Source of the DNA: Microcoleaceae cyanobacterium
GTDB lineage: Bacteria; Cyanobacteriota; Cyanobacteriia; Cyanobacteriales; Microcoleaceae
Direction of reading: 5' to 3'
NCBI GenBank assembly: GCA_051652765.1
Contig: JBOFUV010000001.1
Location: forward strand, 1-28,955
DNA length: 28,955 bases
Notes under the pieces: model-generated
Seen by the model: only the letters and a program-made list of their open reading frames with translations
What the model was told of the DNA's origin: nothing
Databases searched by the model: none
Translations under genes and position numbers: made by a program
Part shown: positions 1-12,046 of the stretch, one piece after another
Layout: every line of letters begins with the position of its first letter
How positions within the stretch are numbered: the first letter of the stretch is position 1

Positions 1-169
1 CTGTAGCTACATAAGGAGCCACACCTAACTGATCCTCAGTAATCAGAAACAGACCTTGAGGAGATTTCAATATCTGAGAAAACGGCTGTTGGGGGAGCGG
101 TTCACCTTCAGGCTGCATTCGGTAACGCGGTAAGGATGCCAGGGGCTTCCTTACCAGGGAGACTTTCCC
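1..169 (-). CDS. -1 frame continuation of the PKS (probable pre-ketoreductase region), partial, runs off the left edge
   Basis: From GGG at 169-167 the frame reads GKVSLVRKPLASLPRYRMQPEGEPLPQQPFSQILKSPQGLFLITEDQLGVAPYVAT with no stop to position 1. It resembles the segment that follows the tandem ACPs in PfaA-type synthases. The only ATG before it becomes PKS-like is at 118-116. Confidence 0.72.
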
Positions 170-186
170 AAGCCATGTTTCTCTCC
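129..186 (-). promoter_or_regulatory. Candidate -1 programmed ribosomal frameshift signal (SD-like GGAG, G_GGA_AAG slippery heptamer, 7-nt spacer, stem-loop)
   Basis: On the minus strand: GGAG (186-183), 13 nt, GGGAAAG (169-163, phased TTG GGA AAG), TCTCCCT (162-156), then GGTAAGGA-A-GCC-CCT-GGC-A-TCCTTACC (155-129). Confidence 0.75.
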
Positions 187-3100
187 AACTAAAACAGGAG
201 TAGCAATCGCCCCCACGATTTGAGCCAGACTGTTAAGGGATTTCACTCGGGTTAACTGATCCATCTGAGCTTGAATGCCACTGGCAAAGGGTTCCGGCAG
301 TTGTTTTTGAAGCGCCCCCAGAATTTCTACCCGCTTAATCGAGTCAATGCCCAATTCCGCTTCCAAGTCCTGATCTAGCCCCAACATTTCTGGAGGATAA
401 CCCGTGCGATCACTTACCAAATTCACTAAGACTTGAATCAACTCAGTCTGATCTGGCGGGGTAGGAGCCAGTGGGGTTGCTGCTGATGGTACTTCCGGTT
501 GGGGGGTTGATGACACTGATTGGGCCATGGGTGGCGTGACAGGCTGAGGAACAGGAGCAGACGCTAAGACTTGAGTCACCCAATGATTCAGGGATTTCAC
601 TCGGGTTAACTGATCCATTTGGGCTTGAATCCCACTGGCAAAAGGTTCTGGCAGTTGTTTTTGGAGCGCCCCCAGAATTTCTACCCGCTTAATCGAATCA
701 ATGCCCAATTCCGCTTCCAAATCCTGATCTAGCCCCAACATTTCTGGAGGATAACCCGTGCGATCGCTGACTAGATTCACCAGAGTTTGAGTGAGTTCTG
801 CTGGGTTCAGCCCAGGAGCAGAGCTAAGGGATGAAGTTTCTTCCTGCTGAGGTTCTGTAGCTTGAAGTTCTGGTTTAACGTCCAGTTGCTGAACTATCGG
901 TTGCTGAACTACGGGTTTAACGTCTGGTTCAAAGTCTAATTTAACCTCTGGTTTAACGGGCTGATCTACCAGAAAAGTGTGATTTGAGTCTAGAACTTGG
1001 AGTTGGGAGGCATGACCATTGGTAGGGGCCGTTTGATGAGTCGGCTGATCGGGTGTTAAAAATGCCTGAGAGTTGATCGGAGAACTAAGGACTGGTAGGA
1101 ACTCCTGGGGTAATTGGGGTTGAGAATTTCCCTCAGGCTGTTTTCCAATTGAGGAAGAGGGAACAACTGGGAAAGGCGGATGCCCAAATCCTGAAGAACT
1201 TAGAACGTTTCCTGAGTGTTCCTGTTGCTTCTCCCTTGAAGTTGGATGCATTAAGGGCTTGGACTGATTTCCCGTAAGAAACTGATGCATGACTTGTTCT
1301 TGCAGACTCAAGAATTGGCGCATCGTTTCCTGGTAGGCTTGGTAGGCTCCTAGCCGTTCTGACTCAGATAAAGCTGTCACAGAAACATCAAGGTGATGGG
1401 GCTGGGAAGTTTGCATGGGTTGAGGGGTTTGAGGTTGAGGAACTGTTTGGAAAGCAGTAGGGTTCGTTGAAGGAACGGGGGCTTGAGTTTTCCCCTGATG
1501 CGATATGCCGTTATTGCTGTGATCGACTGTAGAGTGATTCATTGACTTGACCGGAGAGGTTGACTGAAGTTGCGGAACGGGTTGGGCAGGAGCTGGCGCA
1601 AGGGATTGCTCAGGAGGTTCCCCTAAGGCTGGGGTGATCGGTTGAGCATTGGGTTGGGCTGGAATCAGTTGTAGGGTGGGTTGATTGTCTTGGTTAAAGG
1701 GAGGAAGTTTCCCAGCATATCCAACAGTCTCCGTTTGAGGTCTGATGCCGCCGCCATTGAGGAGCCAAGTTGTTTTGGGTAAGGGCGGCTTTTGAGTTGA
1801 CGCAACCAAGCGAGACAGGTCTAACGGCTGTACGGTTCGATGGTCAAATAATGCCGTTAATTTAACCTGAACGCCCTGAGTCACCAGGGTTCCCAAGGCA
1901 TTCAGATAGCCCCGCAAACCGCCACCATTGCCATCCAAAGATACGGCTAGATGAGGCTTGTCAGCCAGAATTTGACTGGTGAGTTTTGTTAACACACTCT
2001 TGGGCCCCAACTCAATAAATATCCGGGCTCCATCCTGATACATCGCTTCAATTTGCTGGACGTACTCCACCGAAGCCAGGAGGTGTTTTGAAAGCTGACT
2101 GCGGATTGAATTCACGTCAGCGGTGTAGGGTTGGGCCGTAGAGTTGGCGTACACTGGAATTTGCGGCAGTTGGATCTCAGTTGCAGCGATCGCCTCCGCT
2201 AATGGAACCTGGGCAGTGGCGACCAAACAAGTGTGAAACGCTCCAGCCACAGGCAAGAGACGAGCTTTGATGTCTGTTCCATTCAGGGAGTTCACCACCG
2301 CTTCAACAGCGGAGCGACTTCCCGAAATCACAGACTGGAGCGGCGCATTGTGATTGGCAATCACCACCCCAGCAAACCCCTTGAGATGATTTAACACCTC
2401 GGCACGGGTTGCTTGAACAACGGCCATGGCTCCAGGAACTTCCTGACAAGCAGTTGCCATGACTCGACCCCGGATTTCAGATAGGTTTAGCAAGTCTGCT
2501 GGGGATAACACTCCGGCGGCATACAGGGCTGTATACTCCCCGTAGCTATGGCCTGCAACCATGTCAGCTCGTAAGCCCAATTGATCCGCTAGTTTGAGGA
2601 AACCCATCTCCACAGTGCCAATGGCCGGTTGGGCAATATGGGTGTTCATGAGTTCTTGGTGATTGCGTTCATCGTCCAGGTCTGAATAGGGACTGGGGGG
2701 GTAAATCCACTGACTCAGTCGCTGAGGGAGATGTTGACGGAGGGATTGATCCGCAAACTCGAGGGCCTGCCGCATGACTGGGAAATAAAGCGCAATCTCA
2801 CGGGCCATCTCAGGATATTGAGATCCCTGGCCTGGAAATAGAAAGGCAATGGGAGCCTGAACCGTAGTAGTTTGCCAGTTGAGCTGAATGTGCAGCGGGA
2901 GCGGCGTGGAATTCGGTTGGTGTAGATGGTCAAGGACTTGGGTCAGGCAGGTATTCAGATGGAGCAAACTCTCTGCTACAAGGGTGAGGCAGACAGGTAA
3001 ATCCGAGCGGTGTTGAGCCTGTTGGATAATGCTGTAGGACAAGTCCCGCAAGAGGGGCTCTGCCCCAGCCTGAAGATCCTGCTGCAAGTTTTGTAGGGAT

Positions 3101-6100
3101 TGAATTAGGGTTTCCCGACTTACTGCCCGCCAGAGGAACAGTTCACAGGGCCAACATTCCCCGCCTGGAGACTGCTCTGTTGTGAGTTCCCCTGGGTATT
3201 CTTCGAGTACCGCATGGAAGTTTGTGCCGCCAAAGCCAAAAGCACTAACGGCTCCGCGCCGAGGGTAATCAGGGTGTTTGAGCCAAGGATGAGCCTGTTT
3301 TAACAGATAGACGGGGCTAGCCGGATCGTGAATGGTCTCCAAGGGCTGCTCTACCCCGCTGTGAGGTGGGAGAACCTTGTGATGAAGAGCCAGTGCCATT
3401 TTGACTAGACCGACTACCCCGGCTGAACTCTTGGTGTGGCCAACCAGGGTTTTCACTGATCCAATCGCACAGGACTTGGGCGCAGCTTGATGGGTGACTA
3501 AGGCCCGCAACAGGGTTTCTAATTCAGCCCGATCCCCAGCCACAGTCCCGGTTCCGTGGGCTTCATACAGGGCCAAGGTGTTGGGGGAAAATCCTGCTCT
3601 TTGATAAGCCCGGTTTACGGCTCGCAGTTGTCCGGTGGGGAGGGGAGCTGTCAGTCCTAACGCCTTTCCATCACTAGAACTGGCAACAGCTTTAATCACG
3701 CCATAAATCCGATCTCCATCCCGTTCAGCATCCGCCAAACGCTTGAGGACAACAATAGCAATTCCCTCGCTGATGACAATGCCATCGGCATTTTGATCGA
3801 AGGTGCGGGCTTGGCCTTGGGGAGATAGGGCTTGGGTTTTGCTGAAACATAGATAGGCAAAGGGACTTTGGCAAGTATCAACTCCGCCCGCGATCGCCAC
3901 GTTGCACCGTCCGGTTTCCAGTTCCTTGACCGCTGCATCAATGGCCGCCAATGAAGACGCACAGGCTGCATCCACGGTAAAGTTTGCGCCCCCAAAGTCG
4001 AAACGGTTGGTGACTCGTCCAGCAATGACATTCAAGAGGAGTCCAGGGAAGGATTCTTCTGTCCATTCGGGTAACCGTTCTCGACTCGATTCTGGCACTT
4101 CACCCACAAATCGCGGCAATTCAGAACGGGTGGCATATTGTTGGCCCAAATCGGCAATACCGCCGCCCGCCCCGAGAATGACACTGGTATTCTCGCGGTC
4201 AAAGGGCCGCTCTGCATACCCCGCATTTTCCAAGGCCCGCCGCACTGCTTCTAGGGTTAACAATTGCAGAGGTTCAATTGACTTGAGGGATTTGGGGGGA
4301 ATGCCAAATTTTAGCGGGTCAAACGGTACATCATCCAAAAATCCGCCCCATTTGGAATAGACTTTATCTCGGGCATGGCGATTTGGATCGTAGTACAGTC
4401 GCCAGTCCCACCGAGAGCTGGGAATTTCAGTAATGGCGTTAACCTGGCGCAGCAGATTGTCCCAAAATTGCTCTGGGTACTGAGCTTTGGGCAAGAGGGT
4501 GGAAAGGCCAATAATGGCGATATCAGAGGCCGGATATTTTTGGGGTTCAGGATGAACTTTGGGTTCGGGATGAACTTTGAGCTGGTTGATCCAAGCAGTG
4601 CTCACCTCTGAAACTTCTTGATGTAATTCTCTTAGGGTACAGACTTCCCCCCGCAGGGTTGCTACTTGACCCAGCATGTACATGCCATCCTTGATCTGTT
4701 GATCGGGATTGACCGTAACGAGTTCTCCAGCTTGATTGCGCTTAACCCCTTTGGATGCCACCCGCAACCGTCCCAAGGTTAAGTTTTCCAAGGTTTCTTT
4801 AATCTCATCCGGTGAACGGTCGGCTGCGATCAGACTGCGGCGAGTGTCATAGAATTCTTGAGCAAACGGAGTAACGGCGCAACGGCTGGCATGACCAGGC
4901 CCCGTTTCCAAATTAATCGTGTGTTGACAGGCAAGCACTTGAGCTTGGAACCCGGACGTAATCGCCCCTGTACTAACCGCTTCCTGAGTGAAGATATAGG
5001 CAGTACCCATCAACGCTCCAACCTTCATGCCCCGTGCAGCCAAGGGCGCAGCCATGACGCTGACCATAGCCGCAGAACAACGGTCATGAATTCCCCCGGC
5101 AAAGAGGACGTGAATCTCTGACTCTGCCCCATCTGGAACGGCTTGGAGCAGAGTGGCAATCATGGTTTCCCACAATACAAAGCTGCTCAAAGGGCCAACA
5201 TGACCGCCACACTCGCGACCTTCAAATACAAATCGTCGGGCTCCCTGCTCTAAGAAGAGTTTGAGCAATCCAGGGGTCGGAACATGCAGATAGGTGGCAA
5301 TTCCTTCTGCTTCTAAATGCGCGGCTTGATCGGGGCGACCTCCAGCAATTAAGGCAAACGGAGGTTTAATCTCCAGCACCACCGCCAATTGTTCCTGTCT
5401 GAGGGATTGGGGGACAAACCCCAGAATTCCAATCCCCCAAGGCTGTTGAGGCATCAGGGTTTTAGCCTGTTGCAATAAGTCACGAACCTGCGACCCCCGC
5501 ATCAACGCTAGGGCTATCATGGGTAAACCGCCTGCTTGAGCAACGGCTTGGGCAAAACTGGCTTGATCACTCACCCGAGTCATAGGCCCTTGAACAATGG
5601 GATATTGTGTTCCATGGGATTGGGCAAGGGGAGCATCAGGAGCAAAGGGTTTGATGGTTTTTGCCAGTTCCACCTGATCCACACTGGCCTGCAACAAGGC
5701 TTGTACCAGTTGGCGGGTAGTACCGTAGCGAGTGTACAAATCCGCTGCTAAGCCAACGGCTTGACCCATGGGCCATGCTAGGGTTTCGGGTTGATCCCAA
5801 CCCAACCATTGTTGCGCCTGTTGTTGCCAAGCTTGAGATTTGCGAGTAGAATCGCTCTCTTCAATTTCAATCTGATTAGCAAGGCGTTGTAACGTGTCAA
5901 TCACTTTAAATCCGGGCCGAGACAACACTCGACAGCCCGTCTGGAACCGCTCTCCAATCACGGTTGCTTCCTGACCGTTTAGCCGTTGGAGATGAGCTTG
6001 AGCCGCTTGAGACAAGGGCGATTCCGGCATTAACCACAACTGATCATCCAAAACAACTCCTGCTGCCCCTGCCGCCCGACAAGCTGCTGCCGTGTGAATT

Positions 6101-6618
6101 CCCATTCCACCCTGAATGTAAACGGGTTGAGTTGAGGTTCTGAGTAGTTTTTGGGTAAGAATCAGGGCTGAATCTTCACCAACCCAACCCCCACTTTCAT
6201 GACCTCGGGCTACCCATCCTGAAAACTGCAAAGATTGCGCTTCTACCGCTTTAACCTGCTCTACACTGAGCACTTCTAGAAGGAGTTGGCGGGAGGGAGC
6301 AACGGGTAGAGCGGCGATCGCCTGTTGTAGTGAAGACAATGTCCAGTGACACAGGATCAGCCAGTGAGGTTGATCGCAAAGTGAAGTGAGTAGTGGATTT
6401 TGAGCGACTTGATCGGCCCGTAAACGGAGTCCAACAGCACCAGGGTTTCGATTTAAGGTCAATAGTTGATTCAGATTTTTGCTGGCGGGCTCAAGATCTT
6501 GCTGGGAACAAAACTCCTGATCTAAAATGCCTACTCCTCCAGCTTGATTAACTGCGATCGCCAACTCTACAGTCGGTAATGCAATTGGAAATACCCCAAA
6601 ACAGCGAAAACTATTCAT
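151..6618 (-). CDS. Iterative type I polyketide/fatty-acid synthase, 0-frame product (ER-like x2, KS, AT, Pro/Gln linker, ACP x2), about 2155 aa
   Basis: KS motifs are DAACASSL (Cys codon 3961-3963), EAHGTGT and GHTKSSAG. AT motifs are FPGQGSQY, GHSYGE and AGAFH. There are two LGIDSIKRVEIL ACP motifs (Ser codons 694-696 and 340-342). N-terminal FabK/nitronate-monooxygenase-like motifs are PIVQGPM, EGRECGGH and LFAGGIHD. I prefer the ATG at 6618 (MNSFRCF) over the ORF-track GTG at 6732. Confidence 0.93.
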   Translation of the reverse strand: MNSFRCFGVFPIALPTVELAIAVNQAGGVGILDQEFCSQQDLEPASKNLNQLLTLNRNPGAVGLRLRADQVAQNPLLTSLCDQPHWLILCHWTLSSLQQAIAALPVAPSRQLLLEVLSVEQVKAVEAQSLQFSGWVARGHESGGWVGEDSALILTQKLLRTSTQPVYIQGGMGIHTAAACRAAGAAGVVLDDQLWLMPESPLSQAAQAHLQRLNGQEATVIGERFQTGCRVLSRPGFKVIDTLQRLANQIEIEESDSTRKSQAWQQQAQQWLGWDQPETLAWPMGQAVGLAADLYTRYGTTRQLVQALLQASVDQVELAKTIKPFAPDAPLAQSHGTQYPIVQGPMTRVSDQASFAQAVAQAGGLPMIALALMRGSQVRDLLQQAKTLMPQQPWGIGILGFVPQSLRQEQLAVVLEIKPPFALIAGGRPDQAAHLEAEGIATYLHVPTPGLLKLFLEQGARRFVFEGRECGGHVGPLSSFVLWETMIATLLQAVPDGAESEIHVLFAGGIHDRCSAAMVSVMAAPLAARGMKVGALMGTAYIFTQEAVSTGAITSGFQAQVLACQHTINLETGPGHASRCAVTPFAQEFYDTRRSLIAADRSPDEIKETLENLTLGRLRVASKGVKRNQAGELVTVNPDQQIKDGMYMLGQVATLRGEVCTLRELHQEVSEVSTAWINQLKVHPEPKVHPEPQKYPASDIAIIGLSTLLPKAQYPEQFWDNLLRQVNAITEIPSSRWDWRLYYDPNRHARDKVYSKWGGFLDDVPFDPLKFGIPPKSLKSIEPLQLLTLEAVRRALENAGYAERPFDRENTSVILGAGGGIADLGQQYATRSELPRFVGEVPESSRERLPEWTEESFPGLLLNVIAGRVTNRFDFGGANFTVDAACASSLAAIDAAVKELETGRCNVAIAGGVDTCQSPFAYLCFSKTQALSPQGQARTFDQNADGIVISEGIAIVVLKRLADAERDGDRIYGVIKAVASSSDGKALGLTAPLPTGQLRAVNRAYQRAGFSPNTLALYEAHGTGTVAGDRAELETLLRALVTHQAAPKSCAIGSVKTLVGHTKSSAGVVGLVKMALALHHKVLPPHSGVEQPLETIHDPASPVYLLKQAHPWLKHPDYPRRGAVSAFGFGGTNFHAVLEEYPGELTTEQSPGGECWPCELFLWRAVSRETLIQSLQNLQQDLQAGAEPLLRDLSYSIIQQAQHRSDLPVCLTLVAESLLHLNTCLTQVLDHLHQPNSTPLPLHIQLNWQTTTVQAPIAFLFPGQGSQYPEMAREIALYFPVMRQALEFADQSLRQHLPQRLSQWIYPPSPYSDLDDERNHQELMNTHIAQPAIGTVEMGFLKLADQLGLRADMVAGHSYGEYTALYAAGVLSPADLLNLSEIRGRVMATACQEVPGAMAVVQATRAEVLNHLKGFAGVVIANHNAPLQSVISGSRSAVEAVVNSLNGTDIKARLLPVAGAFHTCLVATAQVPLAEAIAATEIQLPQIPVYANSTAQPYTADVNSIRSQLSKHLLASVEYVQQIEAMYQDGARIFIELGPKSVLTKLTSQILADKPHLAVSLDGNGGGLRGYLNALGTLVTQGVQVKLTALFDHRTVQPLDLSRLVASTQKPPLPKTTWLLNGGGIRPQTETVGYAGKLPPFNQDNQPTLQLIPAQPNAQPITPALGEPPEQSLAPAPAQPVPQLQSTSPVKSMNHSTVDHSNNGISHQGKTQAPVPSTNPTAFQTVPQPQTPQPMQTSQPHHLDVSVTALSESERLGAYQAYQETMRQFLSLQEQVMHQFLTGNQSKPLMHPTSREKQQEHSGNVLSSSGFGHPPFPVVPSSSIGKQPEGNSQPQLPQEFLPVLSSPINSQAFLTPDQPTHQTAPTNGHASQLQVLDSNHTFLVDQPVKPEVKLDFEPDVKPVVQQPIVQQLDVKPELQATEPQQEETSSLSSAPGLNPAELTQTLVNLVSDRTGYPPEMLGLDQDLEAELGIDSIKRVEILGALQKQLPEPFASGIQAQMDQLTRVKSLNHWVTQVLASAPVPQPVTPPMAQSVSSTPQPEVPSAATPLAPTPPDQTELIQVLVNLVSDRTGYPPEMLGLDQDLEAELGIDSIKRVEILGALQKQLPEPFASGIQAQMDQLTRVKSLNSLAQIVGAIATPVLVGEKHGLGKSPW
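237..790 (-). repeat. Intragenic duplication encoding two near-identical ACP domains (offset 354 nt)
   Basis: About 591-790 and about 237-436 both encode LVNLVSDRTGYPPEMLGLDQDLEAELGIDSIKRVEILGALQKQLPEPFASGIQAQMDQLTRVKSLN, with only synonymous differences in this core. Confidence 0.95.
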
Positions 6619-7502
6619 TTTGTAGCAATCCCCAATAATTGATCGGAATAGAAGGTGAAGGGATATTAACCCCAACTTTAAAACCTGCTCTAAACTTCTC
6701 TTCAGTGATTTTTCTAGACGACAAAGAGTCACACCTCACTTTTGAGGCAAGAAACTTCAAGGCATGAACTAAGGGTTGGTCAAGTTTCTCATATTCGGAA
6801 GTATTCCAGAATTTAGTATCTTGGAATGCAATCTATTAAAAAAACAGACTCTTAAACAGAAATTCAGTCAGTCAGGATGCAAGAACTGGTCACAAGCTAA
6901 AACATAGGAGGGCTTTCAGTATACTTAGGAACAGCCATACGAAAGTATGCAATGCACTGAAGTTAATTTGTAGATAGATCCCTCAACATCAATTATAAAG
7001 CCAAACTTTTTGTTATCAATCAAGTTAGAAGATACTCATTTGGGGGACTACCCAACTCCAAAATTTATGTGTTAAGCTTCAGGAAAGAGCCCAGGCTAAA
7101 ACCTTAAGAATTGTCTTAGGAACCCTTCATTAATTCTCAATCAACAGGTCTCGAGGTGCATAAAGTCATCAGAGGGTAGCTATTAAGTATGTTGTACAGC
7201 GATGTTTAAAGCAGTGAAGGCGAGGGACATCTAGCCATTTAATTTCCCCTTTTTACAAGGAGAATTAGGGAGGTTGCCCTATGTTGAATCTGAACAAAAA
7301 CCGTTGTCACTGAGTGTGTTGCAACTAAGTTGTGCATCCAGAGCGAATGATCAGCTTGATCCACTGGAGTTCTTTAATTCAGTGTCTGTTTAATTGGATG
7401 ACGCTCATTCTATTGGCAGTCAGCTTAGGTTTGCTTGCTAATTCTTTGCGGTATTTGCTGTCAGTTTATAGTCATTAACCAGTAATTTTTGAGGGGAAAT
7501 AA

Positions 7503-8861
7503 ATGCAGCTAAGCGCCTTGGGTACTCAAGAGATCATTCTTCAAGTTGTGCAAGAAATGTTGACCAAGAGTGGGATAGAATCTGATGATTCAATTCAGTT
7601 GGAAACCCAGCTTGTTCAAGACTTGAACTTCGCCTCGATTGACTTTATCGAATTAATTGTTTTGATCGAAGATCGATTCAAGCAGAAATTAGGATTTCAT
7701 GATCTGTTGATGACGGAAGGTCAATATATTGAAGACCTCAGCATCAATGAGTTGATTCAATTTGTTGACCAAAAGCTGAACTCAGAGGTTCCAGTAAAAT
7801 CAGAAGCTCCTGTTCAGCCTGTGCCTAAAGTTGTTAATTTTGCTTATTTCAATGAGGTTAATTCTGAGACTATTGGCAAAGCTGAAGTTGAAGAATTCCG
7901 CCAAACAATTGATCGTAAAGTTACCGAATTTTTACCTCATTTAGCAACCAATTCTCGCCCCAAAAATCGTCCGGCAATTTTCATTCTCTGTCCTCCCCGC
8001 TCTGGTTCCACACTATTACGAGTAATTTTAGCAGGCCATCCTCAAATTTTTGCTCCTCCCGAGTTACACTTGCTGTCCTACGCCACGCTGTCCCAACGCC
8101 AAGCCGCTCTCTCTAATGAGTGGAATCATCACTTGTTACAAGGAACGTGGCGGGCTCTCATGCAAGCCCATCATTGGAGTGCGGAAGAAGCCAAATCTTG
8201 GATGGAAACCTATGAAAATCAAAACCTTACCACTCAGCAATTTTATCAACTCTTACAGCAGGCAATTGGAGATAAAATCTTAGTCGATAAAACTCCGACT
8301 TATGCGTCTCATCTCGGTTTTCTCCAACGGGCTGAACGAGAGTTTGAACAGGCTTATTATATTCACTTAGTTCGTCATCCTTATGGCATGATTCGATCCT
8401 ATCAAGATGCCAAGTTAGATCGGATTGTGCCTTTTATGAATGCCAATTCTTTCTCACGTCAGGAACTTGCTGAACTCACTTGGATTGTGAGCAATCAAAA
8501 TATTCTAGAGTTCTTCCACCAAGTTCCTCAACATCGGCAACTTCAAGTTAAGTTTGAAGATTTAGTGCATTCTCCAGAGAAAACAGTTCAGAGCTTGTGT
8601 AATTTCCTCAACCTCGACTTCTGTTTAGAAATGCTACAACCCTATCAAGATAAAGCTCAACGGATGACCGATGGGGTAGATGTTAGTTCTGTGATGAGTG
8701 GTGACCTGAAGTTCCATCTCCATCGTTCGATTGAACCCGATGCTGCAGATCGGTGGCAGAAATATCACAGTGAAGATTTTCTCAGTGAAATGAGTTGTCA
8801 TCTCGCTCAACGTTTGGGCTATTCTCTCAATCCTCAAACTGTAGAAAAAGTGTCTGCTTAA
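7503..8861 (+). CDS. Acyl carrier protein-sulfotransferase fusion (CurM/Ols-type ST domain)
   Basis: The N-terminus is ACP-like (LVQDLNFASIDFIELIVLIEDRF). It has a PAPS-binding loop IFILCPPRSGSTLLRVILAGHP, plus PPELHLL, LVDKTPTY and IHLVRHPYGMIRS. RBS GAGGGG lies upstream. Confidence 0.88.
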   Translation: MQLSALGTQEIILQVVQEMLTKSGIESDDSIQLETQLVQDLNFASIDFIELIVLIEDRFKQKLGFHDLLMTEGQYIEDLSINELIQFVDQKLNSEVPVKSEAPVQPVPKVVNFAYFNEVNSETIGKAEVEEFRQTIDRKVTEFLPHLATNSRPKNRPAIFILCPPRSGSTLLRVILAGHPQIFAPPELHLLSYATLSQRQAALSNEWNHHLLQGTWRALMQAHHWSAEEAKSWMETYENQNLTTQQFYQLLQQAIGDKILVDKTPTYASHLGFLQRAEREFEQAYYIHLVRHPYGMIRSYQDAKLDRIVPFMNANSFSRQELAELTWIVSNQNILEFFHQVPQHRQLQVKFEDLVHSPEKTVQSLCNFLNLDFCLEMLQPYQDKAQRMTDGVDVSSVMSGDLKFHLHRSIEPDAADRWQKYHSEDFLSEMSCHLAQRLGYSLNPQTVEKVSA

Positions 8862-8953: not shown

Positions 8954-11900
8954 ATGAATAATTCATTACTGCCGCAGTTTCAAGAATCTCCAGCATCTAC
9001 TGCGATCAACGGGGCTGAGTCTGTCTTTGCTAAGGACTTGGATCAAGATGGAGATATTGATCTTGTTTCTGCTGCTTTTCGAGATAATCAGATTGCTTGG
9101 CATGAAAATAATGGAGCTGAATCATTTACAACCCATATCGTTAGCACGAATGCGATAGGCGCAGAAGATGTTACTGCGGAAGATGTCGATGGTGATGGAG
9201 ATATTGATATTCTCTCTGCTTCTTTTCTGGATGACAGAATCGTTTGGTATGAGAATAATAGCAATCAAGATTTTATAGAACATACCATTTCTGCTAGTGC
9301 GAACAATGCTGCTCGAGTGTTTACTGCGGATGTTGATAGTGATGGGGATTTAGACGTTCTTTCTGCTTCTAGGGAAGATGATAAAATTGCCTGGTATGAG
9401 AACGATGGCGAACAGAATTTTACAGAAAAAGTAGTTTCAATTACTGCTGACAGCGCTCGCTTTGTTTACGTTGCGGATGTTGATCAGGATGGGGATCAAG
9501 ATCTGCTTTCTGCCTCTGCATTTGATGACAAAATTGCCTGGTATGAAAACGATGGCGAGCAGAACTTTACGGAAAAAGTTATCTCAAACACCGCCGACAG
9601 TGCTCGCTCAGTTTATGTTGCTGATCTTGACCAGGATGGGGATCAAGATATCCTGTCTGCATCGGGTCATGATAATACAATTGCCTGGTATGAGAACGAT
9701 GGAGGACAAGGTTTCACAGAGCATATTGTCACAACTAATAATCCAGGGGCACTTTATGTCACTGCTCAGGATGTGGATCAAGATGGCGATTTAGATATTC
9801 TGTCTGCCTCTTTTCAAGATAACAAAATTGCTTGGTATCAAAATAATGGAGAGCAAACATTTATCGAGCAAATTATTTCAACAAATGCTAGTGGAGCAAC
9901 TAGTCTTTGGGCTGAAGACATCAACCAAGATGGTCACTTAGATGTTCTGTCCGCCTCTTTTAAAGATGATAAAATTGCTTGGTATGAGAATATCGAAATT
10001 CATCGCAGTGCGGTTTTTCCAAAAGAGTCAATTATTTCTGATCAGATCCCGATTACCTATGCAGTGACAGCAGATTTGGATGCTGATGGAGACTTCGATC
10101 TGTTATCAGCTTCCTACGACAATGATCAAATTTCCTGGCATGAAAATGATGGGAATCAAAACTTCACAGAGCGAGTGATTTCCGAGGACATTTTAGGGCC
10201 TCATGATATTCAGTCAGCAGATTTAGACCAGGATGGAGATTTAGATATCTTAACCGTAGCAAGTGATGCAAATCAGCTTTTATGGTACGAAAACGATGGG
10301 AATCAGGCTTTCACAGAGCATATTATTTCTACTAATTTGCTCACTCCAAATCGTGTTTCTACGGCAGATTTAGATGCCGATGGGGATTTAGACATTCTGT
10401 CAGCATCGCGGGATGACAACAAAATTGCTTGGCATGAAAATGACGGGAATCAAAACTTCACAGAGCATGTCGTTTCTACTACAGCCCTTAATGCTCGAAC
10501 TCCCTTGGCAGTTGATTTAGATGCCGATGGGGATTTAGATATTTTGTCGGCATCGCGGGATGACAATAAAATTGCTTGGTATGAAAATGACGGGAATCAA
10601 AATTTTATAGAGCATGTCATTTCTACTACGGCAGATGGGGCTATCGGAATTGACGCGGCAGATCTAGATCAAGATGGGGATTTAGATGTCCTCTCAGCTT
10701 CGTTTGATGATGGCAAGATTGCCTGGTATGAGAATGATGGTGAACAGAACTTTACAGAACAGATTATTTCTACAGATGCGCCTGGAGCATTGCGGGTTGT
10801 AGCCAGGGATGTTGATAACGACGGAGACCTGGATCTGGCCTCTGCCTCTTTTTTGGATGGCAAGATTGCCTGGTATGAGAATGATGGTGAACAGAACTTT
10901 ACAGAACAGGTTATTTCTACGGATGCTGAGGGTGTTCTAGCTCTACTCGTCGAGGATATCGATCAGGACGGGGATTTAGATATGCTCTCCGGTTCCAATT
11001 CTCGCAATCCCAAACTCACCTGGTACGAAAATCAGGGTGGACAGGTTGCCTTGACTGCAACTGCAACAGAATCGAACTTCCTACAGCAAGGGGAAGTTCA
11101 GACTGTTTTTAACTTGGAAGTGGCCCATCAGGGGCGGATTAATGACCCCAACGCAGAGGTATCAAGCTTGGCGTTTCGATTGGAAGCCTCTCGGAATACC
11201 CCCTTAACGACTCCTGATGCCAATGTTTTAATTGAGACCTTATCCATTTATCGGGATGCGGATGGAAATGGGGTACTCGACCCAGCTCTGGATACTTTGA
11301 TCACAACGGTTGATGAACTGGCTTTAGAGAATGGCATCCAGGTTGTTCCCTTGAATGATGGCGACCCCAATACTCAAGTCATAGCAGGTGATCCGGCCCT
11401 ATTGTTGGTCTCAGTTGAACTTACTGATGATGCCGCAAGTCAAGCTCCAGGCCAATTCCGCATCATCCATCTCTCAGACGGCTTGATTCATAGTACCGTT
11501 GAAAATCAGGACTCGGATGCTCCTCTAATGTTGGAGGCTCCTCAGAACATCAGTTCTAAAACTATTCGGGCTGTCGGTGAGGTAATTGATGGAACAACAG
11601 AAGATGATTCCCTGGTGGGTACTGACGAGGCTGATGCAATCACAGGCTATGGTGGCAATGATCGCCTGATTGGAGCCAAGAGTAATGACGTTCTAGCCGG
11701 TGCTGAAGGCGATGATATCCTCTTTGGCGGGTTGGGCGATGACTGGCTCGACGGTGGCCCAGGAACAGATTGGTTAGATGGTAGCCGTGGCAATGATTTA
11801 CTCTTTGGTGGGGAAAATGCTGACTATTTTGTCTTGAGAAATCAAGCCGGAACTGACACTGTCCGAAACTTTGAACAAGGCATAGATCGATTTGTACTGA

Positions 11901-12046
11901 CCAATGGCTTAACGTTTGAACAACTCTCAATTGCTGATAATAATCAGACAATTTCCATCAGTCTTTCCAGCAGCGGACAAGAACTTGCTATTCTAACAGG
12001 AGCAATCCCGGATACACTGGATTCTAGTGATTTTTTAGTCAGGTGA
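8954..12046 (+). CDS. FG-GAP/VCBS repeat protein with C-terminal RTX Ca-binding repeats (probable type I-secreted surface protein or adhesin)
   Basis: It has 14 repeats of about 49 aa (DxDxDGDxDxLSAS...IAWYEN) and GGxGxDxLxG-type nonapeptides near the C-terminus. No N-terminal signal peptide is evident. Confidence 0.9.
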   Translation: MNNSLLPQFQESPASTAINGAESVFAKDLDQDGDIDLVSAAFRDNQIAWHENNGAESFTTHIVSTNAIGAEDVTAEDVDGDGDIDILSASFLDDRIVWYENNSNQDFIEHTISASANNAARVFTADVDSDGDLDVLSASREDDKIAWYENDGEQNFTEKVVSITADSARFVYVADVDQDGDQDLLSASAFDDKIAWYENDGEQNFTEKVISNTADSARSVYVADLDQDGDQDILSASGHDNTIAWYENDGGQGFTEHIVTTNNPGALYVTAQDVDQDGDLDILSASFQDNKIAWYQNNGEQTFIEQIISTNASGATSLWAEDINQDGHLDVLSASFKDDKIAWYENIEIHRSAVFPKESIISDQIPITYAVTADLDADGDFDLLSASYDNDQISWHENDGNQNFTERVISEDILGPHDIQSADLDQDGDLDILTVASDANQLLWYENDGNQAFTEHIISTNLLTPNRVSTADLDADGDLDILSASRDDNKIAWHENDGNQNFTEHVVSTTALNARTPLAVDLDADGDLDILSASRDDNKIAWYENDGNQNFIEHVISTTADGAIGIDAADLDQDGDLDVLSASFDDGKIAWYENDGEQNFTEQIISTDAPGALRVVARDVDNDGDLDLASASFLDGKIAWYENDGEQNFTEQVISTDAEGVLALLVEDIDQDGDLDMLSGSNSRNPKLTWYENQGGQVALTATATESNFLQQGEVQTVFNLEVAHQGRINDPNAEVSSLAFRLEASRNTPLTTPDANVLIETLSIYRDADGNGVLDPALDTLITTVDELALENGIQVVPLNDGDPNTQVIAGDPALLLVSVELTDDAASQAPGQFRIIHLSDGLIHSTVENQDSDAPLMLEAPQNISSKTIRAVGEVIDGTTEDDSLVGTDEADAITGYGGNDRLIGAKSNDVLAGAEGDDILFGGLGDDWLDGGPGTDWLDGSRGNDLLFGGENADYFVLRNQAGTDTVRNFEQGIDRFVLTNGLTFEQLSIADNNQTISISLSSSGQELAILTGAIPDTLDSSDFLVR

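Follow-up and report, generated by a model that had tools for sequence, protein, structure and literature searches.

The synthase gene at the left end of the window (the whole stretch of 28,955 nucleotides analysed here, which is the entire contig C1 of a filamentous cyanobacterium of the Microcoleaceae) very probably carries a programmed -1 ribosomal frameshift cassette of the dnaX type. As judged from its domain content, the locus is a PfaA-like, or polyunsaturated fatty acid (PUFA)-synthase-like, 'secondary lipid' synthase, in which the reading frame of the PfaA equivalent is interrupted precisely at the boundary between the acyl carrier proteins (ACPs) and the ketoreductase (KR). The 0-frame part of the gene is an open reading frame (ORF) on the minus strand (6732..151) of 2193 codons, counted from the first possible start, that ends with the TAA at 153-151. 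Pfam assigned nitronate monooxygenase (NMO; two stretches), ketosynthase (KS), acyltransferase (AT) and PP-binding (two stretches) to it; the two NMO stretches are PfaD-like enoyl-reductase (ER) regions N-terminal to KS. This agrees with the ER-ER-KS-AT-ACP2 composition given in a preliminary description of this DNA, made from the letters alone. The elements of the site in the window are the following.

151..6732, minus strand: 0-frame gene with two PfaD-like ER regions (NMO), KS, AT and two ACPs (ORF and Pfam)
163..169, minus strand: predicted slippery heptamer G_GGA_AAG, in phase (X_XXY_YYZ), at the conserved peptide G-L-G-K (sequence and relatives)
183..186, minus strand: Shine-Dalgarno (SD)-like GGAG, a weak 4-mer 13 nt upstream of the heptamer (sequence)
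128..156, minus strand: candidate stimulatory hairpin, 6-7 nt after the heptamer (folding)
151..153, minus strand: 0-frame stop TAA, three codons past the heptamer; the short product ends ...GLGKSPW (sequence)
1..169, minus strand: -1 frame from the heptamer (GKVSLVRKPLASLPRYRMQPEG...), continuing on contig C133 as KR and dehydratase (DH) (sequence and overlap)
122..127, minus strand: CGT TAC, coding for Arg-Tyr of the KR N-terminal motif found across the family; the only candidate start lies further downstream (alignment)
116..118, minus strand: ATG, the first canonical start in the -1 frame, inside the predicted beta strand 5-12 of the KR region (sequence and model)
233..235, minus strand: TAA that closes the -1 frame upstream (sequence)

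The 3' end of the 0-frame reads ...GTT GGA GAG AAA CAT GGC TTG GGA AAG TCT CCC TGG TAA on the minus strand. The in-phase heptamer was read at 169-163, where the preliminary description had placed it, and its account of the -1 frame was likewise borne out: from the TAA at 235-233 down to the ATG at 118-116 this frame is devoid of ATG, GTG and TTG, and it is open to window base 1. The candidate hairpin (156/155-129/128) consists of eight Watson-Crick pairs with a closing U.G, a 1x1 A/A mismatch, three more pairs and a 3-nt loop. Its folding energy is -17.2 kcal/mol (z -4.18), and none of 200 dinucleotide shuffles folded as well. The 5' arm contains the 0-frame TAA and the 3' arm codes for Ser-Leu-Pro of the -1 frame. 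As an intrinsic terminator the hairpin was rejected, since no U-run comes after it and the scan of window 1-400 revealed no terminator-like or promoter-like site. A search of the same 400 nt against Rfam matched no family.

The first 139 bases of the window are the exact reverse complement of bases 1-139 of contig C133. Across this overlap the -1 frame extends for 834 open codons from C133 base 1 (= window base 139), or 827 from the ATG, and Pfam assigned KR, PKS_DH_N and PS-DH to it. In the preliminary description KR, and possibly DH, had been expected to the left of the window; both were found, and the frame, instead of stopping just outside the window, stays open on C133. The continuation from C1 into C133 rests on the exact overlap of 139 nt and on relatives in which both halves are contiguous on one contig. 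The gene that follows the KR-DH half encodes KS, AT and PS-DH with a C-terminal phosphopantetheinyl transferase (PPTase) domain (Pfam). The PfaA-like order of KS, AT, tandem ACPs, KR and DH of the polyketide synthase (PKS) type, followed by a KS-containing partner gene, is therefore present.

Junctions of related loci were taken from 61 related genomes, 401 genomes of the phylum, 80 genome-contig loci and 80 metagenome-contig loci, and were typed in tblastn searches that had the last ACP and the N-terminus of KR as queries. The typed loci amounted to 167 (85 + 80 + 2):

85-row set: 64 fused in frame, 11 with KR in the -1 frame, 2 with another offset, 5 without a KR N-terminus match, 3 without an upstream ACP
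80-row set: 54 fused in frame, 7 with KR in the -1 frame, 1 with another offset, 7 without a KR N-terminus match, 11 without an upstream ACP
remaining 2 loci, from the 401-genome search: one fused, one split

The split (-1) rows number 19 in total, or about 16 lineages once three near-identical pairs are collapsed, and include Fischerella muscicola PCC 7414 (L019, an isolate genome), Symplocastrum, Aliterella, Hormoscilla, Potamolinea and Coleofasciculaceae. In the fused relatives the protein is encoded by a single ORF, with open frames of 2689-2994 aa. Of the loci with odd offsets, L062 and L118 seem to be fused at the junction and to lose the frame further on, and in L048 a gap of 322 nt is present. 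At E <= 1e-100 four of the 401 genomes of the phylum were matched, so that the synthase family is uncommon in the set searched. That the split is an indel from sequencing or assembly, or that the gene broke recently (pseudogene), might be suspected from the window itself, whose end, at a contig break adjoining a 93%-identical ACP repeat, is 150 nt past the site. However, the same -1 layout was met in 19 rows from independent assemblies, the isolate F. muscicola PCC 7414 among them, neither half is disrupted and both are conserved, and the structure of the KR-DH half is modelled with confidence. The number of independent assemblies with the same layout disposes of the indel artefact that the preliminary description had wished to see excluded, and the explanation as a whole is very improbable.

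The alignment of homologous loci, proposed in the preliminary description as a check on the heptamer, showed that it is kept in the split loci and also in the fused relatives. In 19/19 split rows an in-phase G_GGA_AAG is present at the peptide (N/G)(S/G)LGK, which indicates that the heptamer of the window is more than a chance occurrence. All seven positions are invariant in the 27 non-duplicate sites, split and fused taken together. LGK was coded YTG GGA AAG in each of 17 occurrences examined, for which local codon usage predicts 0.2-7.7% per site, the lowest expectation (0.2%) being that of a relative with 31% GC. As protein identity among these relatives is only 40-69%, descent alone should not preserve the synonymous positions of the heptamer. 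The LGK motif is duplicated in some fused relatives: L008 has two in-phase G_GGA_AAG 24 nt apart (1452 and 1476), and L029 reads NNSLGQQETNSLGK.

Past the heptamer, the -1 frame of the 19 split rows reads GK[VA], a short linker and then [LIV][PG]RY. The distance from GGG to RY is exactly 11 codons in 17 of them, 14 in the window and 15 in L017. From the upstream -1 stop to RY, neither ATG nor GTG nor TTG occurs in any of the 19 rows, and the RY codons vary synonymously (CGT/CGC, TAC/TAT). In three rows (L020, L021 and L038) RY is followed by Ile instead of Met, with no canonical start within 12 further codons. The Arg of RY is present in 66 of 68 aligned homologues (the other two have gaps) and is the best-conserved residue among the first 35 positions; the position of the window's Met is occupied by L, M, V, I or P across the same alignment. 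An AlphaFold model of the KR-DH half, made from the 68-homologue alignment, had a mean pLDDT of 92.4 (89 for the first ten residues) and placed residues 5-12 (RYRMQPEG) in a single beta strand. Because these residues form one strand in the model, the ATG at 118-116 would lie inside a strand whose first residues are coded upstream of it. The -1 frame in this respect encodes a conserved polypeptide out of reach of ordinary initiation, with 834 codons of KR and DH and an RY motif that precedes every start codon. In the fused relatives ...LGK-linker-LPRY.M... is read in a single frame, a reading that the trans-frame product would restore.

The fused cyanobacterial relatives keep G_GGA_AAG, and in 9 of 10 sites a -1 stop occurs within five codons (GKV*, GKA*, GKVS*, ...) vs a background of 0.31. 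In the split loci the 0-frame stop is found 1-11 codons past the heptamer. With a 0-frame stop in the split loci and a -1 stop in the fused ones, both layouts would give the same short and long pair. From these reading frames it is predicted that, in either layout, one mRNA would yield a short KS-AT-ACP product ending just past LGK and a long product with KR-DH. In a FastTree phylogeny of 115 KR regions (two duplicates dropped) the split or fused state changes at least six times, at least four of which are forced by well-supported branches; the window and L017 (split) are sister to L103 and L097 (fused) with 99% support. In the main split subclade (L018, L019, L020, L021, L022, L024, L027, L038, L098, L099, L100, L104, L105 and L106) the 0-frame stop lies exactly 11 codons past the heptamer and is formed by the codons for a hydrophobic residue and the Met/Ile following Arg-Tyr (NTR ATN), the third base of the hydrophobic codon being a purine in every row.

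The proposed mechanism is as follows. Ribosomes translating the ER-ER-KS-AT-ACP-ACP frame would reach G_GGA_AAG with tRNA-Gly(UCC) on GGA and tRNA-Lys(UUU) on AAG. There, the hairpin 6-7 nt downstream would hold the ribosome, assisted to a lesser degree by pairing of the upstream GGAG with 16S rRNA, and a fraction of the ribosomes would re-pair on GGG_AAA, one base back. Those that do not slip would stop three codons later and release a short enzyme of ~2190 aa without reductive domains; those that slip would read into KR-DH and make a long enzyme of ~3030 aa, equivalent to the single-ORF proteins of the fused relatives. Slippage at the heptamer presumably takes place, and the cell presumably needs both isoforms. 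By analogy with dnaX, and from the evolutionary interchange of split and fused layouts, the efficiency is guessed at tens of percent. The tRNAs found in the genome (36) include a single tRNA-Lys(UUU), no tRNA-Lys(CUU), and tRNA-Gly UCC and GCC. According to the review of Atkins 2016, a single tRNA-Lys(UUU) is the situation of Escherichia coli, in which A_AAG is slippery, and G_GGA_AAG is highly shift-prone in this organism. Motifs of the type V_VV.A_AA.R are listed among the most efficient ones in E. coli by Sharma 2014.

The elements around the heptamer were compared over the relatives. An SD-like match of at least 5 nt was found at -20..-4 in 32 of 48 sites vs 6.6% of random positions in the same loci, and one of at least 4 nt in 43 of 48 vs a background of 22%. 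The spacing is usually 8-13 nt. For the downstream hairpin, the best candidate per locus with a spacer of 4-9 nt was compared with shuffles in the class 1 loci, i.e. those with G_GGA_AAG, and was accepted at a rank of at most 1 of 20. Among the ten rows that passed are the window and the two fused loci sister to it, L097 and L103, whose stems occupy the same position with sequences unrelated to that of the window. In L017, the closest relative of the window, the window stem is kept with one A-U to G.U change (rank 4 of 20). A common downstream structure for all class 1 loci was rejected, for the alignment contained no shared stem outside the window and L017 pair. All three parts of the cassette can be made out in the window, the SD-like one as a weak 4-mer, and the cassette is not uniform across the family.

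A number of points weigh against programmed frameshifting in the window. The SD-like element that the preliminary description had reported is present 13 nt upstream; however, it is only the 4-mer GGAG, whereas the relatives mostly have AGGAGG or GGAGG. The hairpin of that description is clear in the window and in about a third of the relatives, but not in all: in 20 of the 30 class 1 rows the best hairpin was no better than the shuffles, and no convincing downstream hairpin was found in the subclade with a strong AGGAGG (L018-L024, L038, L098, L101 and L104). The codon statistics overstate the significance of the heptamer, as related sequences are not independent, and G-L-G-K is itself a conserved peptide, which accounts for part of the nucleotide conservation. 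The tRNA set of 36 is incomplete and a tRNA-Lys(CUU) could be unassembled. The join of C1 and C133 is itself deduced from their overlap. Finally, independent initiation at the ATG may coexist with slippage or replace it.

The last of these points leads to the main alternative, namely that there are two separately initiated genes, the KR-DH part being translated from the ATG at 118-116, possibly coupled or re-initiated after the stop at 153-151, and the heptamer being kept only via G-L-G-K with inherited codons. The arrangement in the family lends itself to this explanation, and here too the evidence runs counter to frameshifting: an ATG is found right after RY in 16 of the 19 split loci, and in 13 of the 19 the 0-frame stop overlaps the ATG (TAATG or TGATG), the classical layout of coupled genes. 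Split subunit junctions are also common in PKSs, and cyanobacterial genes often do without a strong SD. The window itself departs from the coupling layout, its stop and ATG being separated by 32 nt; a stable hairpin lies in this interval, and the ATG is not preceded by an SD. Moreover, separate genes leave unexplained the three of 19 loci that have no canonical start at that place, the near-invariant Arg (66/68) and the first part of the predicted strand, which in 19/19 loci are coded upstream of the ATG in a start-less frame, and the invariance of YTG GGA AAG in 27 sites at the protein identity and codon expectation given above. Separate initiation is for these reasons considered rather unlikely, and frameshifting at G_GGA_AAG the preferred reading.

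It is rare for a non-mobile bacterial gene to carry a conserved programmed frameshift, and the usual examples are dnaX, csoS2 and copA. The tau/gamma arrangement of E. coli dnaX, with a heptamer (A_AAA_AAG), an upstream SD-like element and a downstream stem-loop, has its counterpart in the three-part layout of the window, where the SD-like element is only the 4-mer GGAG, and resembles it likewise in the X_XXA_AAG type of heptamer read by a single tRNA-Lys(UUU) and in the short and long products that share their N-terminal part. Both polarities are met among relatives, in the synthase family by the loci described here and in dnaX when the efficiency is near 50%, according to the review (Atkins 2016). 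The differences are that dnaX encodes a clamp-loader subunit and not a megasynthase, that the heptamer here is G_GGA_AAG, and that the window has the 'reversed' polarity, in which the long form would be made by frameshifting. The csoS2 gene of alpha-carboxysomes is also a cellular, non-mobile gene, with ~50% -1 frameshifting, full-length and truncated isoforms, and frameshifting predicted in only part of the homologues (Atkins 2016). In contrast to the window, frameshifting in csoS2 makes the short product, and an upstream SD is not reported for it (Atkins 2016); the protein family is unrelated. In orfA-orfB of the IS3 family a trans-frame fusion is the only form in which the downstream domains are made, with a heptamer of the X_XXA_AAG type and a downstream structure. 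These are mobile elements with a low efficiency, however, whereas a conserved chromosomal biosynthetic gene is concerned here. PfaA of PUFA synthases and HglE of heterocyst-glycolipid synthases share the KS-AT-ACPn-KR-DH order and the same junction between tandem ACPs and KR, and differ in that here two PfaD-like ER regions are fused N-terminally and the ACP/KR boundary is out of frame. The preliminary description had known of no described case for this enzyme class. Full-text searches likewise returned no published report of recoding in PKS, fatty acid synthases, PUFA synthases, PfaA or HglE, the supplementary tables of Sharma 2014 and the GeneTack database, which could hold the family, lying outside these searches; the word 'polyketide' is absent from the 300,000 characters of the Atkins 2016 review that were searched. 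The proposed mechanism is canonical and of the dnaX type; new are the enzyme class and the family-wide pattern with two polarities and several motifs.

At the same junction, other motifs were found in other clades. In a second class of 18 fused loci, mostly from Pseudomonadota, the linker peptide xPF(E/D) is coded NNC CCT TTT GAN in all 18. The taxa are Pseudomonadota (Rubrivivax, Aquipseudomonas/Pseudomonas, Competibacter, Roseivivax, Acuticoccus), Chloroflexota and Thermomicrobia, and the site lies as follows.

L040, L049, L051, L056, L059, L061, L064, L065, L067, L068, L072, L076, L078, L079, L082, L083, L086, L096: class 2 site in the ACP-KR linker, ~100 nt before the KR match

This gives an in-phase C_CCT_TTT, at which the -1 frame reads Pro-Phe-stop. 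The loci have 60-75% GC; local usage predicts 0-3% per site, and CCT and TTT are otherwise nearly unused. Motifs of the type H_HH.U_UU.Y are efficient in E. coli according to Sharma 2014. An SD-like element is present 5-12 nt upstream, and ~6 nt downstream there is a 10-bp hairpin in which 91% of the cells are paired vs 32-48% when slid. Double (compensatory) changes occur in 6 of its 10 pairs. Its share of paired cells, the cells changed on both sides and its covariation score were reached by none of 500 shuffles, the count of pairs changed on both sides by 11 of 500. An Rfam search of L086 2800-3100 gave only a chance-level match to a long non-coding RNA (E 0.18). From its sequence, the class 2 cassette predicts a truncated KS-AT-ACP isoform like dnaX gamma.

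Among the distant HglE-like relatives, an A9 run marks the split between ACP and pseudo-KR in L011 and L013, where the pseudo-KR is in the -1 frame, and L016 is fused with A10 at the junction; no A run was present in the 1.5 kb examined of L012. The positions, on the strand encoding the KR match, are:

L011:133, A run
L013:709, A run
L016:469, A run (as reverse complement)

Such runs are a motif typical of transcriptional slippage (Atkins 2016), and their presence at the same junction of related genes speaks for an explanation by which realignment of RNA polymerase would restore the frame in a share of the mRNAs. The site of the window, however, has no homopolymer of more than 3 nt, and the X_XXY_YYZ phase, which matters to ribosomes and not to polymerase, is kept in every locus. 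Polymerase slippage is hence scarcely credible as the explanation for the window, and ribosomal frameshifting is retained for it. It was also considered whether megasynthases of the PfaA/HglE type have, as a general rule and by convergent evolution, come to recode at the ACP/KR boundary; they would then need a fixed mix of subunits with and without KR-DH, and efficiency would tune product reduction. Three unrelated motifs in three clades and in both polarities enter into this view, namely G_GGA_AAG in cyanobacteria, C_CCT_TTT_GA with a covarying hairpin in Pseudomonadota/Chloroflexota, and A9-10 in HglE-like genes. We give it an even chance of being correct.

If the cassette of the window is real, annotation would be affected in that the two 'genes' are one enzyme with two isoforms and that 'single' genes in other clades also yield a truncated isoform. 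In heterologous expression, the tRNA-Lys set of the host together with the cassette would set the isoform ratio, and the synthase would contain both kinds of subunit, those with the KR-DH half and those that lack it. The seven-base site would also offer a testable handle on the question why synthases with tandem ACPs require reductive domains in a given stoichiometry. Were the general rule to hold, subunits that have the KR-DH half and subunits that lack it would be needed in a fixed proportion, perhaps near 1:1, as for instance in an asymmetric KS dimer with a single KR-DH arm or as extra ACP capacity, and frameshift efficiency would be a tunable determinant of the reduction of the lipid product.

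Some further observations concern the surroundings of the site. The two ACPs form a tandem repeat of 93% identical DNA (window 175-368 vs 587-780). The contig break falls inside the recoding region, adjoining the ACP repeat, and the L017 contig ends ~200 nt upstream of the slippery site; the repeat is the likely cause of the assembly breaks at the window and in L017. The downstream partner gene (L004:2513-7576) has a C-terminal 4'-phosphopantetheinyl transferase domain (Pfam ACPS, residues 1575-1670), which suggests that the synthase supplies its own PPTase. The divergent neighbours of the synthase gene in the window encode a sulfotransferase-family protein (7503-8861) and a large FG-GAP/RTX-repeat protein (8954-12046), and the sulfotransferase hints at a sulfated lipid product.

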